A DNA stretch of 64,000 bases from an uncultured Candidatus Rokubacteria bacterium (GCA_963789955.1 CAWBMV010000006.1:64001-128000); one strand, 5' to 3'. Shown: positions 1-10,540, numbered from the stretch's first letter. The notes: a model not told the origin generated them from the sequence alone. Made by a program: numbers and translations.

Positions 1-86
1 AGACCGGCCGAGCGGAGCCACAGAAGCTCGAGGCCGAGTGCACTCGCGCCGGAGAGCGCGAAGCACGCCCAGAGCAGCTTGTTCAC
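1..86 (-). CDS. N-terminus of a fused membrane/spermidine-synthase-like protein (runs off the window edge)
   Basis: GTG at 86 overlaps the permease TGA (GTGA). Reads MNKLLWACFALSGASALGLELLWLRSAG, resembling the LSGxxxLxxExxWxR start of MFS/spermidine synthase fusions. Confidence 0.55.
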   Translation of the reverse strand, partial: MNKLLWACFALSGASALGLELLWLRSAG

Positions 87-964
87 GCCGGGCGGAACCT
101 GAGCGCCTGTCGGAGCCGGACCGCGCTACCGACGACGACAAGCACGGCGGCGCTCACGGCCACTTCGGCGGGGCCGAGCGGCATGTCATAGCGATACGCC
201 GCGCAGAAGCCGACGAACGCGGTGACGCCTCCGATCGCCGCCGAGGCGATCGAGAAGGTCAGCATTCGCCGCGTGACGAGGCGCGCGGTGAGCGGCGGCG
301 CCAGCAGGAATCCGAACGTCACGAGGGGGCCGGCCGCAAGAACGCCGAATGAGATCGTGAGGCCGCACAGGACGTAGAGCGTCGTGTCCCAGACGGTGGT
401 CGACTTGCCGAAAACCACGGCGAGATCCCGGTCGAACGAGACGAGCAGAAATTCCTTCTGGAAGACGAGGAGGACCACGACGACGAGGCCGAGGACGACG
501 CCGAGAAACGCCACACTCTTCTCGGTCGCGGCCAGGAGCTCGCCCTTGAGTAGATTCACGATGTGCGCCTCACCCCAGGGGTCGGCCGCCAGGAACAGGA
601 TCGTGAGGGCGCCGGCGATCGCGTAGACCATGCCGATGCGCGCCTCGACGATCCCCCGCCCGCGCCGCTCCAGCGCCGCCAGGGTGAGGATCCCGATGAG
701 CGTGAAGGCGGTGGCCCCGACCCGGGCCATGATGGAATCGCTGGCCCCTCCGTGGGGATGGGGCCCGACGATCGTGCGATGCATGAGGAGCGCGAAGGCG
801 ATGCCGGCGGCGGAGAGCTGCGGAAGGGCGACCCCGAGGAAGATCATGCGGCGCAGGACGAAGTAGACACCGACGAGCGGACAGACGACGCCGACCAGGA
901 CGCTGGCGACCAGCGCGTCGCGCAGGAGGAACCCGGGCCGCAATACCTCGAGGACCGTGCTCAT
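83..964 (-). CDS. Metal (Zn/Mn/Ni/Co) ABC transporter permease, ZnuB/MntB family
   Basis: Starts MSTVLEV at ATG 964, overlapping the ATPase stop. VCPLVGVYFVLRRMIFLGVALPQ motif and multiple TM segments. Confidence 0.92.
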   Translation of the reverse strand: MSTVLEVLRPGFLLRDALVASVLVGVVCPLVGVYFVLRRMIFLGVALPQLSAAGIAFALLMHRTIVGPHPHGGASDSIMARVGATAFTLIGILTLAALERRGRGIVEARIGMVYAIAGALTILFLAADPWGEAHIVNLLKGELLAATEKSVAFLGVVLGLVVVVLLVFQKEFLLVSFDRDLAVVFGKSTTVWDTTLYVLCGLTISFGVLAAGPLVTFGFLLAPPLTARLVTRRMLTFSIASAAIGGVTAFVGFCAAYRYDMPLGPAEVAVSAAVLVVVGSAVRLRQALRFRPA

Positions 965-1659
965 GCGCTCGACGGCACCCCCAGGTCGGCCGCGGCCATC
1001 ACGTCTTCGACCCGGCGCCGGGCGACGCGCCCATCCTGCACCCAGAACACCCCGGTGGCGAGGCCCTGCAGCATCCGCGGCTGGTGCGTGACGAGCAGCA
1101 CCGTCAGGCCCGCGTCCCGGTTGAGCCGGCTGAGGACGCCCATGATCGTCGCGGTCGCCTCCGCGTCGACGCCCGCCGTGGGCTCGTCGAGGAGAAGGAA
1201 GCTCGGCTCGGCGGCGAGCGCGCGCGCGATCAGCGCCCGCTGGGTCTGACCGCCTGAGAGCGAGGCGAACCGCTGTTGCGCAATCGCGCCGAGCCCGACC
1301 AGGTCCAGGGCCTCCGAGGCCCGTCTGCGCTCGGCCCGCCCGACACGCCGCCATGGCGCAAGGCGCGCGTATGTGCCCATCAGGACGACCTCGAAGACCG
1401 TCAGCGGAAAGCTCGGATCGAGCGACTCCCGCTGAGGCACGTAGCCGAGCGGGCTCGCGGCGCGGTCGAAGCCGTACTCGAGGGTGCCCTGGCTGACCGG
1501 CATGAGTCCGACGATCCCGCGCAGGAGGGTCGTCTTGCCTGCGCCGTTGGGTCCCAGCAGCGCGACGAATTCGCCGCGCTCGATCTCGAGGCTGACGTGC
1601 TCGAGGACCTGCCGATTCCCGTACCCGAGGCTGACGTTACGGAGTCGCAGAAGGCACAA
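961..1659 (-). CDS. Metal ABC transporter ATP-binding protein, ZnuC family
   Basis: Walker A GPNGAGKT, YVPQ, LSGGQ signature, LLLDEPTAGVD, H-loop. Confidence 0.95.
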   Translation of the reverse strand: MCLLRLRNVSLGYGNRQVLEHVSLEIERGEFVALLGPNGAGKTTLLRGIVGLMPVSQGTLEYGFDRAASPLGYVPQRESLDPSFPLTVFEVVLMGTYARLAPWRRVGRAERRRASEALDLVGLGAIAQQRFASLSGGQTQRALIARALAAEPSFLLLDEPTAGVDAEATATIMGVLSRLNRDAGLTVLLVTHQPRMLQGLATGVFWVQDGRVARRRVEDVMAAADLGVPSSA

Positions 1660-2583
1660 GAAGGGCCGCCGAGCCTCCTGTCACCGCTTTGACCAGGGTG
1701 CGGACATTGTAGTCAATGAGGTCGATATAGTCCTTGGCCTCGGGCACTCCGCGGACCATGGCCGGCAGCTCGACCAGCTTCGCCCCGGTGGACTTGGCCA
1801 CCGTCTCGGCGAGCCCGGCCGGATAATGCAGCTCGCGGATGACGATCTCGACCTTGGCCTGACGCATGCGCTCGATGAGCTCGGCGACGTGCGCCGGGGT
1901 GGGATCGACGCCCGGCCGAATCTCGATCGTCCCGAACTGGATCATCCCGAAGCGTTCGGCGAAGTAGATCATGTCCGGGTGATACGCCACGAATTTCTTG
2001 CCCTTCAACGGCGCGGCCTCACGCTGCCAGCGAACGATCGCCTCGTCGAGCTTTGCGTTGTAGGCGTCCCCGTTCTTCTTGAAGACCGCCGCATGCTCCG
2101 GGTCGAGACGGGAGAGACCGTCGACGATCGCCCGGACGATGTTCTTGCCATTACCGGGGTCGAGATTGAAATGGGGGTTGCCCATCGGATGAACGTCGCC
2201 GAGGGAACGATCGAGACGGGTGGGCACCTCGAGCGGCGTGACGTAGACGGAGCAGTCGATGTAGCCCGGCATGTCACGCTGGATCTTCGGGTTCCGACTG
2301 GCCTCGAGCAGAGCCGGAAGGAACGCATGCTCGGCCTCGAGCCCCATCAGGATCACGCCGTCGGCGCGATTGAGCAGGACCGCGAAGCTCGGCTTCATCG
2401 GGACCGCGTGGATGTCCTCGACGCCGGTCGCGAGGCTCGCGACGTCGACGAAGTCGCCGCCGACGTTGCGGGTGATGTCGGCCAGATCCGGGATGGTCGT
2501 CACGATCCGTAGCTTCTTGGCCGCGTCGGCGCCGCCGGGAAGCAGCACGGTCGCGACGAGAATGACGAGCAGAAATCTCTCAT
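1637..2583 (-). CDS. Metal ABC transporter substrate-binding protein, ZnuA/PsaA cluster A-I (probable indel in signal peptide)
   Basis: DIHAV, DVHPMGNPHFNLDP and YHPD metal-site motifs. ATG 2583 follows GGAG; the signal peptide RFLLVILVATVLLPGGADA is one base out of frame with this ATG. Confidence 0.92.
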
Positions 2584-2666
2584 GATATCTCCGTCACCGC
2601 GTGGACCATGCTTCGCACATTGTAGTCCACGAAGGCTGCTTCGTTGAGCGGGTTCGCGGTCGTCTC
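2580..2666 (-). pseudogene. Vestigial C-terminus of a second metal-binding protein paralog
   Basis: Reads ETTANPLNEAAFVDYNVRSMVHAVTEIS*, compared with DLIDYNVRTLVKAVT at the end of the intact SBP. Its TGA overlaps the SBP ATG. Confidence 0.6.
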
Positions 2667-4051
2667 CTATCGATCCCGGAAGCCGTGGACGTGACTACCC
2701 ATGACGATCGTCCATTGCAGGAAGAACGCATCGTCGGTCGGCTTGGATGACGGCAAGCTCGTTTCGCTGTGGGTGTATTGGAGCCGAATGCGCTGGAACT
2801 CGGACGCCCAGATGGTGAAATACGGTGAGATCTGCCAGGTCGTGCGCGACGGATTGTCGATGTCCTGGACGTATTCCAGCAGGATCCCCGGGTAGTAGCG
2901 GCGGGTCAGGCGCGCCTCGAAATAGGTGTACGCGCCGACCGCATCGCGATATCTGAAGACCTGGGTAGGGCTGTCGTCGGTCGGGGGAATGCCCGGTCGG
3001 GCCTCGTGATTCACGAGGAGCTCGCTGCCCCAGATGAAGCCACGGTACGAGGACTGGCCCAGCGGTGCGTACCGCAACGTCATATCGAATCCGAACAGAT
3101 TTCGAGCCTTCAGCCCTTCGATTCGCACCTCCGGCGTGTAGGCGTCGCTCAGCCCGAGGTCGAGCCCTAGAGAATCGCTGAGGCTGAAGTACGTGGCCAC
3201 CCGACCCAGGTAGGTGAACTCCGAAAGATCGCGCGGTACGAGGTTGGAGACGCGATCGTTCTCGGCACCGATCTTGTTGTACATGCCGGCCGTGAACGTC
3301 AGGTACTGATCGATCGGCGCCAGCCAGCTCACCTCGACGCCGTCGGCCTGCGATTCTCCGCCGACGTACTGGTCGAGGACGAGGGGCCGGTTCACGAACG
3401 GCAGATCGTGGTCGTGGAACGTGGACAGGCGTCCGAACTCGGCGAAGAAGCGCCCGCCCTTGACCGTGAGGTTGTAGGGGAGCGCCGTCGTGACGATGGC
3501 GGCTTCCTCGACCTCGACCCCGTCCGCCGTCCCGTTGATGATGGCGTACGCCCTCGCAAACGGATCGACACTCGCCGAGATCCCCAGCTCACCCGACCGG
3601 AACTCGAAGTTCGAGTGGTTCTGCCGACTGTCGAGAACACCGAGTCGACGACGAATCCGATGGCTGGATTGAACTGAGATGGGAACGTCTTGTTCGCCGC
3701 GGCGAGTTGCGGCTGGATCTCGGCCAGGATCATTCGCTTGAGCTCCTCCGCGTCGACCGCCATGGGTGCCGGAGTCGGCGTCGCGGGCGGAGCCGCCGAG
3801 GGTATCGCCGGGGGAGGCGCTGCGGGCGCGGCTGACGGTGTGGGTGTGCCCGGTTTCTCGCCCGAGAGCTTTCGGATCAGCTCCTCCTGCTGTTTCATCT
3901 GTTGCTCGACGCGCTGCAACTGCTGCTTGACTGCGTCGAGCTCCCGGCGAAGCTGCTCTTCGCTCGCCGGCTGCTGGCTATGACCGGCGTAGGACCGCCG
4001 AGTATCACTGCCGTGCCCAGCAATACGACGACGGGAAGTAAGCACGCGCAT
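2667..4051 (-). CDS. Outer-membrane beta-barrel porin of the type linked to Zn/Mn ABC operons (frameshifted)
   Basis: Joined frames give a signal peptide, coiled coil, Pro/Ala linker, FNPAIG..EFRSGELGISASVDPFARAY..GRFFAEFGRLSTFHDHDLPFVNRP, amphipathic strands and C-terminal GSHVHGF. SD CGGAGGA at 4056-4062. Confidence 0.8.
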
Positions 4052-4127
4052 GCGATCCTCCGTATGGACATCGAGCTTGCCGGCAGCGGAGCCGGCGTGG
4101 TCGAGCTACGTCAGTGCGCGGAGGACG

Positions 4128-4409
4128 CTAGCGGAGCGGAGGAGCGCGAGAATCGAAGCGGTAGAGCGCCTGGCCCTGGATTCGGCCCGAGCGCTGGTGG
4201 GCCGCGAGCAGGGAGGCCAGGAACAGGACCACGACCGGTACGGTTTCGGCCAGCGACGCGGTCGAGCCGAGCGCCGCCATCAGGCTGAGGTCGTGCTCTG
4301 CGTTCCAGAGCCCCGACTCGGCCGAGACGTGGACGTGGAGAAGGGTCGCGCCGGCGACGACGAACGCGACGAGGCCCAGCACCAAGAGTAGCGACTTGAA
4401 CTTCGTCAC
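4128..4409 (-). CDS. Upstream leader / putative ribosome-arrest peptide with C-terminal RAPP (DUF2946/CruR-like, Cys-free)
   Basis: 93 aa: N-terminal hydrophobic segment, LHVHV, AEHD, and ends DSRAPPLR. Lies 76 nt upstream of the porin. Confidence 0.8.
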   Translation of the reverse strand: MTKFKSLLLVLGLVAFVVAGATLLHVHVSAESGLWNAEHDLSLMAALGSTASLAETVPVVVLFLASLLAAHQRSGRIQGQALYRFDSRAPPLR

Positions 4410-4416
4410 GGCGCTA

Positions 4417-4444
4417 ACAATACCTCACTTCTCGGTGTACGCAA
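4417..4444 (-). promoter_or_regulatory. Putative sigma70 promoter giving a leaderless transcript of the RAPP leader
   Basis: TTGCGT-N16-TATTGT, then 7 nt to GTG 4409. No SD in that 7-nt gap. Confidence 0.55.
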
Positions 4445-4476
4445 AGCCTGCGAAGGACTCACCCGAGGGGCGTGCC

Positions 4477-4845
4477 TCACCGCCGACCCGTCACCGTGAA
4501 GGTCAAGGTCGACTCGACGACGTGGCCGTCGACCGACAGCACGCGAAAGCTCACGGTATAGCGTCCGGGCGCGAGGAGAGGCAGCGAGACCGCGAGCCGC
4601 CGGGCATCCTCGGCCGACACCGCGACGTCACGCAGATCGACCTGGGCCCCCGCCTCGTTGGTCACCGACGCCTTCGAGTACGCCGGCTCGAGGCGCTCGT
4701 TGAACCAGAGCTCGACCCGGGGCGGCGGCTCGACGAGCGCGGCTCGCTGGGCGGGGACGGACTTCACGAGGACCGCGTGCGCGAGGGCCGCGGCAGGCCG
4801 GAGCAGCAGGGCGGCCAGCCCGGCGAGGACGAGACGCCGTCTCAT
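4477..4845 (-). CDS. copC: Periplasmic copper-binding protein CopC
   Basis: Signal peptide ending ALA-HAVL (N-terminal His), ELWFNERLE, YTVSFRVLSVDGH. Confidence 0.93.
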   Translation of the reverse strand: MRRRLVLAGLAALLLRPAAALAHAVLVKSVPAQRAALVEPPPRVELWFNERLEPAYSKASVTNEAGAQVDLRDVAVSAEDARRLAVSLPLLAPGRYTVSFRVLSVDGHVVESTLTFTVTGRR

Positions 4846-5210
4846 TTGATCTTCTCGATCGCGGTGACGGCCAGGTTCGGCAGAATGCCTCGCAAGGTGA
4901 ATCGTACCGCGTCGCCGACGGCCACGGCCTCCTGGATCTTCGGCGACGCGACGCGAAAGCCCATGGTCATCGCCGGCATGTAGCCCGGGATGTCGCCGTG
5001 CGTGAGCACGATCACCCCGAGCTCGGGAAAGATCGCGCGCACGACGCCGTCGACCGTCCACTGGCGCTCGACTCCGCTGGTGGCGGCGGTGCGCGCCTCG
5101 TCGAGCTCGCGCTCGAGCCGGGCCGCGCGAAGCCCCCAGAAGGCATAGCCCCAGCCCACACCGACGACGAGCGCCAGGTTGATCAGGAGCACCGCCTTCC
5201 AGGCCCGCAT
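4842..5210 (-). CDS. Membrane-anchored CusF-like copper-binding protein
   Basis: N-terminal TM. LTHGDIPGYMPAMTMGFRV carries the H..MxM CusF site, followed by VGDAVRF. Confidence 0.88.
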   Translation of the reverse strand: MRAWKAVLLINLALVVGVGWGYAFWGLRAARLERELDEARTAATSGVERQWTVDGVVRAIFPELGVIVLTHGDIPGYMPAMTMGFRVASPKIQEAVAVGDAVRFTLRGILPNLAVTAIEKIK

Positions 5211-7187
5211 CAGTGCACGTGCTCCTCCGGCGCCGCCTCCGCCGTGATCTTCTCGTCGTTGAGCTGCTGCACCTGGGCCATGAACGAATCGAGGTCGCCG
5301 GCCTCGCCGCCGCTTCGAGTGATGGCGCGGATGTAGCCCTGGCGATCGATGAGGAGCTCGACGTGCGGAGCGACCGCGAACATCCGATAGGCGGCCACGA
5401 TCGTCTCGGCGCCCTCGGTGACCACCGGGAACATGATGCGCGGGTCCGGACCGAGATGACGGATCGCGTCCGGGTCGGCGTCGATCGGCACCGCGATGAC
5501 CTCCACGCCGAGCATCGCCAGGCTTCCCTCGTGCTGGGCGATCTGAGTCATCCGCGCGCGCGAGCCGGGCAGCGCGTACAGCACGACCAGCACGTTGCGG
5601 CCCCGATAGTCCTTGAGCGTGCGCGCCGGCGTCGGGCCGACCGTGAACGTGAAGTCGGGTGCGACGAGCCAGCGCCGGTCGCGCTCGATCGTGGGTCCCA
5701 TGCCTCGGGCGCCGTACCCCGCCGACAGCGCGCGCAGGAAGTTGATCAGCTCCCAGCGTTGCTCCTCGCCGAGCCGCGAGTCGAATCCGGGCATCCCGGA
5801 TCCCGAGATCCCGTGACTGATCCACCAGAACAGGTCGCCCGCCGTGTGCTGCGCGGTGTGCGGCGCGCGCAGGTCGGCAGGGGACCGCGGAAGCCCTCGG
5901 CCGTCGGGGCCGTCGCCTGCGCCCCGCGGCCCGTGGCAGCCCGCGCAGTTCGTCTGGTAGAGCGCGGCGCCGGCCGTGATCGCGCCGGCCTGATAGGGTA
6001 CCGAAGGGCGCAGATACGTCGTCGGGTACGCGTCGATCGCCAGCGGCGGAAGCGCGAGCCCGGCGCCGGCCCCGAGCAAGGCGAGCGCGACCATCGCCAG
6101 GGGAAGCCGCCAGGCGCGCATCGCGATCCCGGCGATCAGGGCCAGCAGACCGATCACACCGATCTGGCTTCCGATCAACGCACGCGCCGTCTCGTCGGCG
6201 CGGCCCTCGAGCGCGGCGAACGACAGGCGGATCGTGAACGGCCAGAGTGGCGGCTCGTGACGGGCCGGCGGCGTGACGCTCATCGCGGCGACGATGGCGA
6301 CGATCGCCAGCGCCAGGATCGCCTCCACGAGCACAAATCCCGCGAGTCGGCGCATCGCCGGACGACCGACCGCCGGCCCGTCGCCGCCGAGACGGGCCAG
6401 AAGAACCGAGCGATTCACTGCGGCCAGCACGAGAATGAGCACCAGCAGCCCAAGCTTGGCGAGGAGCAGACGCCCGTAGGTCGTGCCGACGAGCCCGGCG
6501 ACGTTGCCGACGTGGGTGACCGCGAGCGTGGTGCCCGTGATCGCGAGCAGGAGGATCACGCCCAGCGCGGCGCGCGAGAAGCTCCGCGCCGCGAGCACCG
6601 CGTACGGCCGCGCATCCGCGCCGGCGTCCGTCGACGCCTTTTTCAGGAGAAGCGCCAGCGGGAGCAGCCCTCCCACCCAGATGCCGGCGCCGAGCACGTG
6701 CAGGGCGTCGACCGCGATCGCCCGCGCGGTGTCCGGCTCCACGGCGGCGGCGTGACCCGCCGCCGCGAGCGGCACCAGGGCCGCGACCCCGAGCAGCATC
6801 GCTTCGCCTCTCGCCGCCCGCCAGTCCGCGCGCCGCGCGACGGACACGCGCAAGGACAGGAAGGCGACGAGCATCGACGAGGAACCCGGCGCGCACGAGC
6901 CAGACGTGGCCGGCCTGGGTTTCGACCAGCACGCGTCCGATCGCGCGGGCTTCGAGCGCCGCGGCCGGCCGATCTTCGAAGAGGGCCGCCTGCGTACCGA
7001 CCACGACGAGGCCGGACGCGAGCGCGACGAGCGCGCAGCCCCACGCCCAGGCGAGCACGCGCCGCTCCCAGGCCAGTGCGGTCGCGCGATCAGAGCGGCC
7101 TGCCATCACGATCATCGCCGCGGCGCCGACGAGGAGGACCGAGCTGGCGAGATGGAACCAGCGAGCGGTGAGACCGAGCGCGTACAC
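5210..7187 (-). CDS. copD: CopD + cytochrome c + thioredoxin-fold fusion (frameshift near 6875)
   Basis: ARWFHL, AGHAAA, LHVLGAGIWVGGL, TTYGRLLLAKL (CopD). CAGCH heme motif with GMPGF. APDFTF..LKDYRGR redoxin-like domain. Ends EEHVH. Confidence 0.88.
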
Positions 7188-7217
7188 CCGGCCAGTGTAC
7201 CGGATGGGCAACCGGCA

Positions 7218-7246
7218 TTGAGTCCGGCGAGTTTCTTCGCTACAGT
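7218..7246 (+). promoter_or_regulatory. Putative sigma70 promoter giving a leaderless transcript of the second RAPP leader
   Basis: TTGAGT-N17-TACAGT, then 7 nt to ATG 7254. Confidence 0.65.
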
Positions 7247-7253
7247 GCCATCC

Positions 7254-7764
7254 ATGCTGCGGGTCCTGGCGATGCTCGCCTTGGCCGCTTTCGTTCTGGC
7301 CGCGGGCCCGGCCGACGCTCACGTCGGCAGCGCCGAGCGCGCCGTGTTCGAGGCGCCGGAGCTTCCGGCGGCCTCGGAAGCCTCTGGTCCGACTCAGTTC
7401 CTGGTAGCGGGCGACTCGACCGACTTCCCGTGGCCGATTGCCCTGATCGTGCTCTTCGCCGCGGCGACCCTCACGCGGCGGCGTTCCCGCGGACTGGTCG
7501 CGGCGGTCCTGGTCGCTCCTGATCGCGATCCTCGGTGTCGAGGCGGCGGTGCATTCGGTGCACCACGCGTCCGGCGGCCAACCCGTCGCGTGTCCGACCG
7601 CCTCGGTCGCCGCGCATCTCGACGGCACCACGGTCGTGGCGCTCGCGCTGGACGAGCCCGTCCACCCGGTCGGCACCGCGACCGTGCTGTCCGGTCCGCG
7701 CCTCGCTTCACTCCGCTCGCTCGATCCGTCGCAGCCCCGGGCTCCCCCGTTCGCGCTCGCGTAG
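7254..7764 (+). CDS. Second upstream leader / putative arrest peptide with C-terminal RAPP (about 170 aa, frameshift near 7517)
   Basis: Signal peptide ending ADA-HVG, two hydrophobic segments, VHSVHH..ACPTASVAAH, and ends QPRAPPFALA. Lies 39 nt upstream of the porin gene. Confidence 0.78.
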
Positions 7765-7803
7765 ACATCGCGCGACGCTCCAAAAATTTCCCAGGGGGGT
7801 CCC

Positions 7804-8791
7804 ATGCAAGGGAAGACTCTATTCGCGTGCGCGCTCGCGCTGGCGCTCTCGTTCGCGACGTTCGACGCGGCTCAGGCCCACGGCCTGATCGGCAAGCGGT
7901 TTTTCCCGGCGACCTTGGCCACCGACGATCCGTTCGTGGCCGACGAGCTCTCGTTGCCGACCATCTCCTATCTCAAGCTCCGGGGCAGTGAAGACGCGCC
8001 CCCGACGAAACAGATCGACCTGAGCGGCGAGTTCTCGAAGCGTCTGAGTCCCGAATCTGGGCATCTCGCTCGCTGGGACCTTCACGATGCTGGACCCGGA
8101 CGAAGGCTCGTCCGTGAGCGGCTTCGACAACCTCGAGGTCTCGGCGAAGTACGTCTTCTTCAAGAACGCCCCGCACGAGCTCCTGCTGGCGGGCGGTCTC
8201 AGCTGGGACGTGGGCGGCACCGGCAGCAAGAAGGTCGACGCCGAGAGCTTCGACACGTGGACGCCGCAGCTCTTCTTCGGCAAGGGCTTCGGCGATCTGC
8301 CGGATCAGCTCGAGCTGATGAAGCCCTTCGCGGTGACCGGCGTGTTCGGCCTGGCGATTCCCTCGCGCGTGCACACGAAGACGTTCGAGACCGACGAAGA
8401 CGGCACCGTGGACGTGAAGAAGCCGCTGAATCCGATGGTGTTCCAGTGGGGGTTCAGCTTCCAGTACAACCTGCAATACCTGCAATCCTACGTGCGCGAC
8501 GTCGGGCTCCCGGCGCCGCTCAACCGGATGATTCCGATCGTCGAGCTCGTGCTCGAGACGCCGCTCGACGGGCGGGACGCCGGGCGCACGACCGGCACCG
8601 TGAACCCGGGGATCATCTGGTTCGGGCGGTATTTCCAGCTCGGGCTCGAGGCGGTCATTCCGGTCAACCACGACATCAGCAAGAACATCGGCGCCCTCGC
8701 GCAGATTCACTTCTATCTGGACGACATCCTGCCGCAGGTCTTCACGTGGACGCCGTTCCACGGCGTCCTCGGGCCGACGCAGCCGCAGTGA
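7804..8791 (+). CDS. Putative outer-membrane beta-barrel protein associated with copCD (frameshift near 8050)
   Basis: Signal peptide AQA-HGLIGKRFFPATLATDDPFVADELSLP. Alternating aromatic strands GFDNLEVSAKY, QLGLEAVIPVN, QIHFYLDD. Confidence 0.72.
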
Positions 8792-9139
8792 GCCGACTGC
8801 TGGCGGTGGCGCTGCTTCTGCTCGCTCCGAGCTGGGCCGGGGCTCACGCGTTTCCCGACCATTCCGAGCCCCGGGTCGGGCACACGGTGGAGGCGTCGCC
8901 GCCGGCAGTCCGCATCTGGTTCGACGGGCAGATCGAGCCCGTGTTCAGCAAGCTTCGCGTCGAGGACGCCAACAACCGACAGGTCGACAAGGGCGACTCG
9001 CGGGTGAATCCGACGGACGCGAACAATTCTCGAGGTCGGTCTGCCGCCGCTGGCGCCGGGCCGATATCGCGTGTTCTGGAGCGTCGTCGCCCGTGACGGC
9101 CACCGGACCGAGGGCGATTTTGCTTTTCGGGTGAAATAG
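8788..9139 (+). CDS. copC: Copper-binding protein CopC (frameshift near 9025)
   Basis: AGA-HAFPDHSEP, RIWFDGQIEPVFS, then LEVGLPPLAPGRYRVFWSVVARDGHRTEGDFAF. Confidence 0.9.
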
Positions 9140-9155
9140 ACGGGACGCCCCAGAC

Positions 9156-10540
9156 GTGATCGCCCTGCCTCTGCACGAGCTGCTCCTGGCGACCGGCGGC
9201 CGCTGGCTCGGACTGCTCGCGCTGGCGGTGCTGGTCGGCGGCCTCGTGCTCGACTGCGTCGTGCTCCCGCGCCACGCCGGAGAGCTCGTGACGGCCCGGC
9301 GCCGGCTCCAGCGGTGGATCAGCCTGGCGATCGTGCTACTGCTCGTGACGTCCGTGATCGATCTTCTGGCCCGAGCGCGCGTGATGAGCGGGGGCGACCT
9401 CTCGCAGGTGGGCACGGTGCTGCCGCTCGTGCTGACGCGCACGCACTTCGGCACGGTGTGGATCGCGCGCGCGATCATTCTCGTGGCTCTCCTCGCACTC
9501 TCCGCGTTGCGTCGTCGCCGGCAGCCGGATCGTCGGGTTCGTGCTCGCCCTCGGCGTCGCGCTGACCGGTACGCTCACCGGGCACGCCGCCGACTGGGGC
9601 GATCGCTCGTTCTCCGTGCTGGTCGACTGGCTTCACGCGGTCGCCGCCACCGCGTGGACGGGAGGGCTGTTCGGTCTGGCGATCGCGCTCAGCCCGCGGA
9701 GCGCGTTCAGGATCGGCGCCTCATCCGAGCTGCTCCGTACGGTCGCGCGGCGATTCTCGCGTCTCGCCGGGTACTGCCTGCTGGTCGTCGTCGCCAGCGG
9801 TGTCTACAACGCGTACGTTCAAGTGCCGACCTTCGCTTCGCTGTGGACCACGACGTATGGAGCGGCTCTCCTGCTCAAGGTCGTGCTCGCGCTGGTCCTC
9901 GCGCTGCTGGGCGCTGTGAATCGCTACCTGGTGCTGCCGGGTCTCGGGGCGACCCGCCCGCGACGGCGCGGACGGCTCCGCCGGCTCTGTCGCATCGCGC
10001 TCTTCGGCGCCGCGACGGCTCAGGGAGCAGCGCGAACCCGGCTCTCGCGGCTGGTCGGGCGCGAAGCGGCGGTCGCGGTTGTCGTGTTCGGCTGTACGGC
10101 CGTCCTCGGCGAGTCCACCCCCAAAACCCACGAGGCCCACGCCTCCCACGTCGGCGATCGAGAGGAGGACGGCGCGCATCACGATGCAGGAGCTGCATGC
10201 GAGCGGCGGCGTGCCGAAGGGCTGGATGTTCACGCCGCCCTCGGGCGACGCCGCCAGGGGCCGTGAGGTGTTCGCGCGGCTCGAGTGCTACACGTGTCAC
10301 GCGGTGGCCGGCGAGACGTTCCCGCGGCCCTCGAAGGTCGGGCCCGCGCTGAGCGACGTCGGCCACCATCATCCGCCCGGCTATCTCCTCGAGTCGGTCA
10401 TCAATCCGAACGCCGTGATCGTCGAGGCGCCGGGCTATACTGGCCCCGACGGACGCTCGATCATGCCCGACTATCGCGACAGCCTCTCGACCCGCGAGCT
10501 GATCGACCTGATCGCCTACCTGAAGAGCCTCGGAGGCTAG
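9156..10540 (+). CDS. copD: CopD with C-terminal cytochrome c, probably one fused gene (frameshifts near 9510 and 10170)
   Basis: THFGTVWIAR, TGHAADWG, WLHAVAATAWTGGL, TTTYGAALLLK. His linker THEAHASH. CYTCH heme motif and SIMPDY. Confidence 0.82.

Follow-up and report, generated by a model that had tools for sequence, protein, structure and literature searches.

We analysed a 64,000-nt stretch of DNA from an uncultured Candidatus Rokubacteria bacterium (GCA_963789955.1 CAWBMV010000006.1:64001-128000; hereafter the window), which carries two small open reading frames (ORFs), ORF1 (4128..4409, minus strand) and ORF2 (7254..7764, plus strand), each followed by the gene of a predicted outer-membrane barrel (porA and porB, respectively). 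Overall, ORF1 and ORF2 are probably two unrelated-looking leader peptides of the CruR/CutF type, each heading a pore-led metal operon, because their Arg-Ala-Pro-Pro (RAPP) motif is invariant, the putative metal ligands lie at a fixed, CruR-like distance from it, and both the upstream promoters and the gene order are conserved. The same comparisons indicate that both are genuine genes under protein-level selection. A sequence-only reading of this DNA had proposed two parallel co-translational leaders at metal operons; RAPP, the ligand at position −49 relative to its Arg, the promoters and the gene order lend this proposal comparative support, but its novelty was overstated, as His-only leaders and RAPP metal leaders had already been published.

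ORF1 is an intact frame of 93 amino acids (aa) with a GTG start. It is characterized, from the N-terminus onwards, by a membrane or signal segment, an H25-x-H27 motif, the motif W35-N-x-E-H39-D40, a second hydrophobic stretch and the tail D-S-R88-A-P-P91-L-R-stop. The earlier description of a small ORF with an export signal, a His cluster and a terminal RAPP agreed with our data for the coordinates, the export segment and the three His residues (His25, His27 and His39), but the RAPP (codons CGC GCT CCT CCG; 4137..4148, minus strand) lies two residues from the end rather than at it. RAPP was kept in 41 of the 42 unique 3′ ends of the ORF1 family (from 60 loci), the exception being RAPL, and exactly two codons separated it from the stop codon in 41 of the 42 sequences. 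Its Ala, Pro and Pro were encoded by 4, 4 and 3 different codons, respectively, and this varied synonymous usage indicates selection on the peptide.

A profile search of 1.8 billion representatives with ORF1 (E ≤ 0.001) gave 196 matching proteins (clusters at 50% identity). Homologues of ORF1 reach down to ~40% identity. Among the best 150 of the 196 profile matches, 137 ended in R[AG]PP (131 in RAPP and 6 in RGPP), and the other 13 looked truncated, fused or frameshifted. The family pattern consists of Lys or Arg, an N-terminal hydrophobic segment with P-H-x-H at its end, the motif (W/Y/F)-N-x-(E/D)-H-D and the tail (D/A)(S/P)-R-A-P-P-x-x. Between the ligand motif and RAPP, conservation is poor; this part is hydrophobic in the window, though not in every member. 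No Cys is present in the window's ORF1, and 72 of the 137 family members are Cys-free. The export signals of both leaders were assigned from hydropathy; in ORF1, the segment spans residues 1-30 and is preceded by Lys or Arg. The family occurred in 91 of 201 sampled genomes of the phylum (52 of the 104 of high quality), most of them belonging to the window's own family; leaving aside three unpublished genomes, all of them with matches (G065, G090 and G127), the counts are 88 of 198 and 49 of 101, respectively.

ORF2 would encode 169 aa if intact, and has one extra base at ~7514 in the window, so that the 511 bases at 7254-7764 hold its signal-peptide half and its RAPP half in different frames. 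The small ORF announced here is therefore not open in the window, but intact relatives of ~169 aa, colinear with both halves, bear out its signal peptide, its His cluster and a RAPP four aa from the end. Members of the family exhibit, in order, a cleavable-looking signal peptide (A-D-A, then H), the mature N-terminus H-V-G-x-x-E-R-x-x-F-E-A-P, two membrane segments around RRRSRR and, in the second half, E-x-x-V-H-S-V-H-H, A-C-P-T-A-S-x-A-A-H-L-D-G-T and L-R-S-L-D-P-S-x-P-R-A-P-P followed by four residues. The hydropathy segment spans residues 1-22 after Lys or Arg, with A-D-A preceding the mature His. The window's ORF2 ends in PRAPPFALA (RAPP codons CGG GCT CCC CCG; 7738..7749, plus strand). 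RAPP was kept in all 17 unique ORF2-type tails, followed by 1-6 residues, and a recognisable ORF2-type ORF was absent at 3 of the 26 loci examined (L023, L025 and L026). As stated earlier, neither leader has a CxxC or CxxxC; ORF2, however, has a single conserved Cys (A-C-P-T-A-S), at the position of the first Cys of the CruR CxxC. The sequence-only reading had also suggested searching related genomes for R[AG]PP-ending ORFs ahead of the two pores, and this search gave the 41 of 42 and 17 of 17 conserved tails above, with porA and porB downstream. The comparison of the two families gave no demonstration of common ancestry: hhalign aligned only the C-terminal 24 residues, with a probability of 1.3%, in keeping with the two ORFs having been called dissimilar.

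A C-terminal R[AG]PP by itself proves nothing, and it is its conservation that is the evidence: in this genome of 69% GC, 171 of 69,865 six-frame segments (≥50 aa) ended in R[AG]PP, versus 124.5 expected. All 40 unique ORF1-family sequences had the His of E-H-D 49 residues before the RAPP Arg and the leading His of H-x-H at −63. In the wider ORF1 family, 83 of 136 members had His at −49, while 47 had Glu or Asp there, a displacement by one residue. Among ORF2-type proteins, the conserved Cys was at −49 in 19 of 19 unique sequences, a His was at −41 in 15 of the 19, and the H-S-V-H-H cluster was at −56 to −69. The CxxC of CruR is formed by C90 and C93 and its RAPP starts at R139, which places these residues at −49 and −46 with 45 intervening residues; across more than 2000 DUF2946 proteins this spacing varies by no more than 1-2 residues, and it is important for regulation, since an insertion of five residues impairs copper control (PMC9426467). 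By this comparison, the −49 match to CruR appears striking for the Cys of ORF2 and less telling for ORF1, because seven conserved residues were candidates there.

Among the features of DUF2946-type leaders, both ORFs show a RAPP near the C-terminus, a fixed distance from ligand to RAPP, a predicted N-terminal export signal (N-in, C-out) and a putative position at the head of an operon with metal genes. Neither shows a match to the DUF2946 model above its gathering score, nor the CxxC of CruR or the CxxxC of CutF. Judged by sequence, ORF1 and ORF2 thus resemble CruR and CutF in every feature tested bar the Cys pair, and are not DUF2946 members by the model. Above its cut-off, DUF2946 had no match anywhere in the genome, and NCBIfam returned nothing for either leader or either pore. 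In the ESM Atlas, both leaders fell in Pfam-less clusters of the same phylum, with weak pointers to DUF2946 (0.90, the family being on 24% of members, and 0.81, on 48%) that are leads only.

Comparative alignment placed promoter-like boxes directly before each leader. For ORF1, these are the −35-like TTGCGT (4439..4444, minus strand) and the −10-like TATTGT (4417..4422, minus strand; 7 nt before the GTG start). A pattern of TTGNNN, 16-18 nt, a −10-like box, 5-11 nt and an in-frame start, chosen post hoc with the data already seen, matched 40 of the 67 unique upstream regions of homologues, versus 0.19 in shuffles. The boxes of the family were TTGCGT or TTGCAA, then after 16-17 nt TATYGT or TGTTGT, with the start codon 7-9 nt further on (overall, the conserved boxes ended 7-11 nt ahead of it); variants at other ORF1 loci were CTTGAC...CACACT and an extended CTATACT, and the −35 box lay within the end of the CopC gene in several relatives. 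The ORF2 element (7218..7246, plus strand) comprises TTGAGT (7218-7223), 17 nt, TACAGT (7241-7246), 7 nt and the ATG, and all 5 unique upstream regions of orthologues carried it as TTGAGT, 17 nt, TA(C/G)AGT, 7 nt, ATG. A consensus promoter scan of the window returned 0 sites, missing the boxes of both ORFs. The earlier claim of a sigma70-like promoter directly before each ORF is therefore supported by conservation (40 of 67 and 5 of 5) but not by the scan. Since such boxes directly precede ORF1, it would head its own transcript despite the CopC gene upstream on the same strand, and since only 7 nt separate the −10 box from the start codon, the mRNAs of ORF1 and ORF2 are probably leaderless or near-leaderless. 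In one clade of relatives (L004, L005, L007, L009, L010, L049 and L052), the −35/−10 spacer upstream of the ORF1 homologue holds two CGATCG palindromes (AATCGATCGCCGATCGTG), which are absent from the window's clade; the pair may be an operator for a repressor.

The gene behind ORF1, porA (2667..4051, minus strand), encodes a signal peptide, a coiled coil, a Pro-rich linker and a predicted porin-like barrel of ~16 strands, and has at least three frameshifts in the window. It follows ORF1 in 10 of 11 relatives, and the eleventh locus reaches a contig edge. At 27 of 28 further loci of the phylum (L102, from an unpublished genome, was left out of the 28), a GGAGG, a start codon and a long ORF with a signal-peptide-like N-terminus, as judged by eye, were found 44-84 nt downstream of ORF1; ~24 of these 27 ORFs, also by eye, opened with a porA-type signal peptide and coiled-coil N-terminus. 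The structural model of porA, of low confidence (pLDDT 51), had ~16 strands, and all of its best matches were porins, with OprP first (E 1.6e-10). Moreover, porA carries an invariant H-x-H-D(-L-P), which is H-E-H-D in the window, and a C-terminal G-x-H-x-H-x-F; these His motifs may be metal sites in a TonB-independent pore. The gene behind ORF2, porB (7804..8791, plus strand; frameshift near 8050), encodes a predicted outer-membrane barrel of ~12 strands with the mature N-terminus H-G-L-I-G-K-R-F-F-P-A-T-L..D-D-P-F, and follows ORF2-type genes in 12 loci. Its model, likewise of low confidence (pLDDT 57), matched 12-strand barrels (FapF, 6e-7; NanC; a COG4313 channel). Neither pore belongs to a Pfam or NCBIfam family. 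The proposal that an outer-membrane barrel gene follows each leader is thus supported at the level of the fold, within the limits of these two models.

An ABC importer lies behind porA (83..2548, minus strand; Pfam), with a ZnuA-family binding protein (1637-2548), an ATPase (961-1659) and an ABC-3 permease (83-958). The binding protein aligned best with zinc-binding solved relatives and has His/His/His/Glu at the aligned ligand positions, which we take to be the zinc-type ligand rule. Behind porB are CopC, CopD and cytochrome c genes (8800..10540, plus strand), the latter two assigned by Pfam and the CopC identified by visual reading and by comparison with the intact relative L084. These contexts, the one hint at the earlier proposed difference in specificity (Cu versus Zn/Mn/Ni/Co), suggest zinc for ORF1 (ZnuA-type ligands) and copper for ORF2 (CopC/CopD).

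An anti-Shine-Dalgarno (anti-SD) box, CGUCCUCCG (4119..4127, minus strand), lies directly 3′ of the ORF1 stop codon, and the Shine-Dalgarno (SD) sequence of porA, GGAGG, is at 4057..4061 (minus strand; start ATG at 4049-4051). Both the minimum-energy fold and the RNAalifold consensus of 35 sequences (28-34 of 35 per pair) join CGUCCUCCG to the porA SD ACGGAGGAUCG; the consensus also pairs the Arg-Ala codons of ORF1 with bases immediately 3′ of the porA AUG. For the porA SD, the predicted probability of being unpaired was 0.00 in the window and had a median of 0.01 over 64 unique loci (≤0.01 at 36 of them and ≤0.05 at 45), versus a median of 0.30 for 250 control genes with GGAGG in the same genome (16 at ≤0.01 and 26 at ≤0.05). 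In the minimum-energy fold, the Ala-Pro-Pro codons are the partner of the purine-rich ribosome-binding site of porB, AGGGGGG (7793..7799, plus strand). For seven ORF2 orthologues, the consensus fold favours a different partner immediately 3′ of the stop codon, and that partner is missing from the window; at the distant ORF2-type loci L087, L088 and L090, the site was hidden and opened in the stalled model. The RNA from 30 nt before the ORF1 Arg codon to the SD had a median of 47% C and 26% G, a composition matched by 0.13% of random genome windows, and the same stretch of ORF2 orthologues had 42-49% C and 16-24% G. The Rho-loading site of CruR has been mapped to a C>G region (PMC9426467). The loci combine a feature of CruR (the C-rich stretch) with one of CutF (the hidden SD).

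Two variations of this intergenic region were observed. In the closest relatives, the ribosome-binding region of porA is duplicated in tandem (CACACGGAGGATCG twice; L034:379-510 and L035:560-692). In one metagenome variant (L065:400-495), a 32-nt deletion takes out the anti-SD box, whereas the close relatives L064 and L066 retain it.

Under the leader reading, each of ORF1 and ORF2 would open a transcript of its own and probably be translated without a 5′ leader on the mRNA, and its N-terminal signal would insert the peptide into or through the inner membrane. The candidate ligands (H-x-H and E-H-D in ORF1; H-S-V-H-H, one Cys and one His in ORF2) would stand at a fixed distance from RAPP, at which the ribosome would stall once the two Pro codons occupy the P and A sites. 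RAPP has been reported to arrest bacterial ribosomes in this way, with a toeprint for CruR (PMC12992588). During the stall, the ligand at −49 would lie just outside the ribosome tunnel or in the translocon. The stalled ribosome would cover the C-rich, G-poor stretch, which might otherwise load Rho, and would disturb the helix that masks where translation of the pore gene begins (its ribosome-binding site and its start codon), so that the pore and the downstream transporter genes would be expressed; metal binding by the nascent chain would alter the duration of the stall. From these comparisons we infer that the ribosome stalls and that the nascent peptide binds metal, as well as which metal it is, in which direction it acts and any role of Rho. 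Under either polarity, a stalled ribosome would mean that the downstream genes are on. At CruR, the stall is relieved by copper, after which Rho ends transcription ahead of the uptake genes (PMC9426467), whereas at CutF copper prolongs the stall, which melts a stem-loop over the SD of the next gene (PMC9973294; bioRxiv 10.1101/2025.02.05.636593). We favour the CruR-like polarity, in which metal would shorten the stall and an ample supply of it would switch uptake off, given the importer-like appearance of the downstream genes, and consider it to fall just short of probable.

Several results weigh against these ORFs being CruR/CutF-type leaders. The comparison with DUF2946 that the sequence-only reading had called for recognised neither family: against the Pfam model (PF11162; gathering score 23.7 bits), ORF1 had no match and the C-terminal half of ORF2 scored 14 bits (E 0.09), none of the full-length ORF2 relatives and paralogues matched at E ≤ 1, and only 1 of 138 ORF1-family members did at E ≤ 0.1. 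As to the RNA switch, the exact anti-SD box was present in just 11 of the 28 wider-phylum loci, the fold energies of the ORF1-porA and ORF2-porB regions were ordinary versus shuffles (z −1.33 and −0.70, respectively), and covariation in ORF1-porA was nearly nil (3 of 12 pairs; RNAalifold covariation term +0.13). The window's porB site had an unpaired probability of 0.22 versus 0.30 in ordinary genes, and thus no special hiding. Moreover, the compared loci are related, so the counts overstate independence. Finally, in the folding model, the footprint of a ribosome stalled at RAPP lifted the predicted accessibility of the porA SD from 0.01 to 0.085, and a terminating ribosome lifted it to 0.20. 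This last result would suit plain translational coupling, in which ORF1 and ORF2 are small membrane proteins with a function of their own (metal chaperone or transporter accessory), any ribosome that completes them frees the next ribosome-binding site and RAPP is non-regulatory. ORF2, with 169 aa and further conserved regions (the mature N-terminal His and two membrane segments), may indeed have a job of its own. We nevertheless regard coupling as improbable: RAPP stalls ribosomes, and few four-residue words are avoided as strongly in bacterial proteomes (PMC12992588); here it is invariant, at a fixed distance from the stop codon and from the ligand motif in two unrelated families, with an otherwise poorly conserved stretch between that motif and RAPP.

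The same leaders might instead follow the logic of CutF, a metal-bound nascent chain prolonging the stall, opening the hidden ribosome-binding site and switching the pore operon on with metal. The layout of ORF1 corresponds to this, as its stop codon is followed by an anti-SD box and the SD is predicted to be sequestered; in addition, CopC/CopD and CusF-like genes can function in copper tolerance as well as in uptake, and these neighbours are compatible with both. This polarity is possible but rather doubtful, as the genes behind the leaders are importer-like (a pore and ABC-3/ZnuA), for which induction by metal would be less sensible physiologically, and the C-rich, G-poor stretch resembles the arrangement at CruR (PMC9426467). 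An N-terminal export signal with a C-terminal RAPP is also the architecture of ApdA and ApdP (PMC7897499, PMC10951233), and ORF1 and ORF2 could be secretion monitors like these and SecM, released from the stall only by the pulling force of export and sensing Sec/YidC capacity rather than metal. The downstream genes, however, encode pores and metal transporters and not Sec/YidC components, and the conserved residues are metal ligands (His, Cys, Glu and Asp) at the CruR distance, which makes such monitors quite improbable. As for the broken frames, single-base indels interrupt porA at least three times (window 3960-4045 and ~3680), CopD (6874-6876), ORF2 (7514-7515) and porB (8049-8054), as would be expected if ORF2 were a decaying pseudogene in a degenerating island and the second leader non-functional in this organism. 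Contigs of three DNA runs and one RNA-library run (short-read, from other samples), however, have one base fewer at 7514/7515, 6874/6876 and 8049/8054, and frames are broken at other loci of the same genome as well. Decay is thus very improbable; the breaks in ORF2, CopD and porB are most likely assembly indel errors and not pseudogenes, because the short-read contigs from other samples lack the extra base.

Among the closest known systems is CruR (Bp2923 of Bordetella pertussis, the DUF2946 prototype; PMC9426467). As described there, CruR heads a metal-uptake operon led by an outer-membrane protein and has an N-terminal export signal, a RAPP 2-4 residues from the C-terminus, a ligand 49 residues before the Arg and a C-rich, G-poor leader end, all of which are shared here. 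It differs in having a CxxC and a DUF2946 match (ORF1 has no conserved Cys, ORF2 has one, and neither matches the model), in the TonB-dependent transporter downstream, whereas the barrels here are predicted to be TonB-independent, and in an intergenic gap of 162 nt, versus 76 nt for ORF1 and 39 nt for ORF2. Unlike at CruR, the loci here include an anti-SD box and probably give leaderless mRNAs. CutF of Rhodobacter capsulatus (PMC9973294, PMC8456105, bioRxiv 10.1101/2025.02.05.636593) is similarly an exported leader with a C-terminal proline motif and an RNA helix hiding the next ribosome-binding site; as reported, its metal motif is CxxxC, its end is Pro-rich and of PPP type, and its target is a detoxifying multicopper oxidase switched on by copper. 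In contrast, our leaders have His-based ligands, a strict RAPP and uptake-like targets.

His-only CutF-like proteins, forming clusters 14 and 17 of a sequence network, adjoin HupE/UreJ (nickel/cobalt) genes, and their authors suggest non-copper metals (PMC9973294). They are the same general kind of leader with a His-only metal motif, but have HupE/UreJ neighbours in place of porin-like barrels with ZnuABC-type or CopC/CopD genes; we set them apart by description, and the ORF1 family might coincide with them. SLIV_18480 of Streptomyces lividans (PMC12992588) is a membrane-embedded RAPP leader with a predicted His-based copper site upstream of copper genes, and differs in sequence and phylum; arrest was shown in vitro for the S. 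lividans RAPP set (PMC12992588). ApdA, ApdP and SecM (PMC7897499, PMC10951233) are likewise exported leaders whose RAPP/RAGP arrest module sits close to the C-terminus, but control Sec components, sense export force and, as described, have no metal ligands. Finally, RAPP/RGPP leaders have been reported upstream of metal genes in many phyla, in a 2025 survey that dropped leaders with an unannotated downstream gene (PMC12992588); this survey would exclude ORF1 and ORF2, because porA and porB are unannotated.

The locus as a whole (positions 83-10540; family assignments by Pfam) consists of two diverging gene strings. The minus string comprises, in order, a CopD-cytochrome c-AhpC/TSA fusion, a CusF-like gene, CopC, ORF1, porA, the ZnuA-family gene, the ABC ATPase and the ABC-3 permease; the plus string comprises ORF2, porB, CopC, CopD and cytochrome c. 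The copper genes upstream of ORF1 are co-directional with it (4477..7171, minus strand; Pfam and synteny): the CopD fusion runs from 5210 to ~7171 (frameshift near 6875), the CusF-like gene is at 4842-5213 (Pfam) and CopC at 4477-4845 (Pfam). The fusion joins CopD to cytochrome c and thioredoxin-like AhpC/TSA domains in a single protein of ~650-730 aa, and is kept in relatives (L084). In some relatives, a gene for a YncE-like beta-propeller stands in place of CopC directly upstream of the ORF1 homologue (L040:1106-2440). The window has a G+C content of 69%, and its source is a 6.8-Mb genome bin of 38 contigs, 87% complete. Genes of the Fur, CsoR and MerR families numbered 0 on the window's contig, with 2, 1 and 4, respectively, elsewhere in the genome, which agrees, for these three families, with the earlier remark that no metalloregulator gene is visible in the island. 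Contigs of the RNA-library run X15 spanned 4476-8200, with none at 3900-4475 (ORF1 and the start of porA), and are uninformative about expression. One X15 contig (6465-7255) stops at 7255, running into Illumina adapter; from this single contig, its end could be the 5′ end of the minus-strand CopD transcript.

Four further RAPP-tailed, exported small ORFs were observed in the same genome (G000 C13:9679-9999, L030; C37:343141-343719, L032; C37:350267-350794, L033; C1:561979-562314, L029), one of which, with C-S-P-D-C (CxxxC), precedes a TonB-dependent receptor. The other three, of ORF2 type, precede a CopC-like ORF (22.4 bits versus a Pfam cut-off of 23.3), a Plug-domain receptor and a cytochrome c, respectively. 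Moreover, a 96-aa exported ORF (G000 C22:15337-15627; L031:5838-6128, minus strand) with D-P-P-D-P-T-W-I-G-G-Y-W-D-D-D-D-F-D and a C-terminal C-P-R-A-P-P-A lies 235 nt ahead of the genes of a two-component system (histidine kinase and OmpR-type response regulator), which would be an unusual place for a RAPP leader.

His-only CutF-like leaders (PMC9973294) and RAPP leaders before metal genes (PMC12992588) were already known, according to these reports. Within the literature searched, we found no paper on the ORF1 or ORF2 families or on RAPP leaders before porin-ZnuABC operons. What is new is the pair of Pfam-less leader families, one of them large and Cys-free, tied to two unannotated barrel families, together with the shared −49 ruler, the promoter-adjacent, probably leaderless layout and the anti-SD box. 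More speculatively, and with the odds in our view against it, metal-sensing RAPP leaders would form a superfamily far larger than DUF2946, with a single −49 ruler and interchangeable ligand chemistry (Cys-x-x-Cys, Cys...His, or Cys-free His/Glu/Asp). The Cys-free ORF1 family (at least 196 clusters at 50% identity) would then be a sensor of zinc or another non-copper metal on leaderless mRNA, gating TonB-independent, His-lined metal pores of a class not yet described through Rho protection and unmasking of the ribosome-binding site.

If the proposed stalling mechanism holds, co-translational metal sensing by stalling leaders would reach past annotated DUF2946 proteins and past cysteine chemistry, and the −49 ruler would be a simple rule for finding such sensors in any genome, as well as locating the reading of the metal on the path from ribosome to translocon. 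To our knowledge, the crossing of the outer membrane by zinc and copper is poorly known, and the two unannotated barrel families would be regulated, TonB-independent entry routes for these metals. It would also explain a recurrent hypothetical gene in Methylomirabilota and other soil phyla, and the metal operons of this organism would be regulated without a nearby regulator gene.

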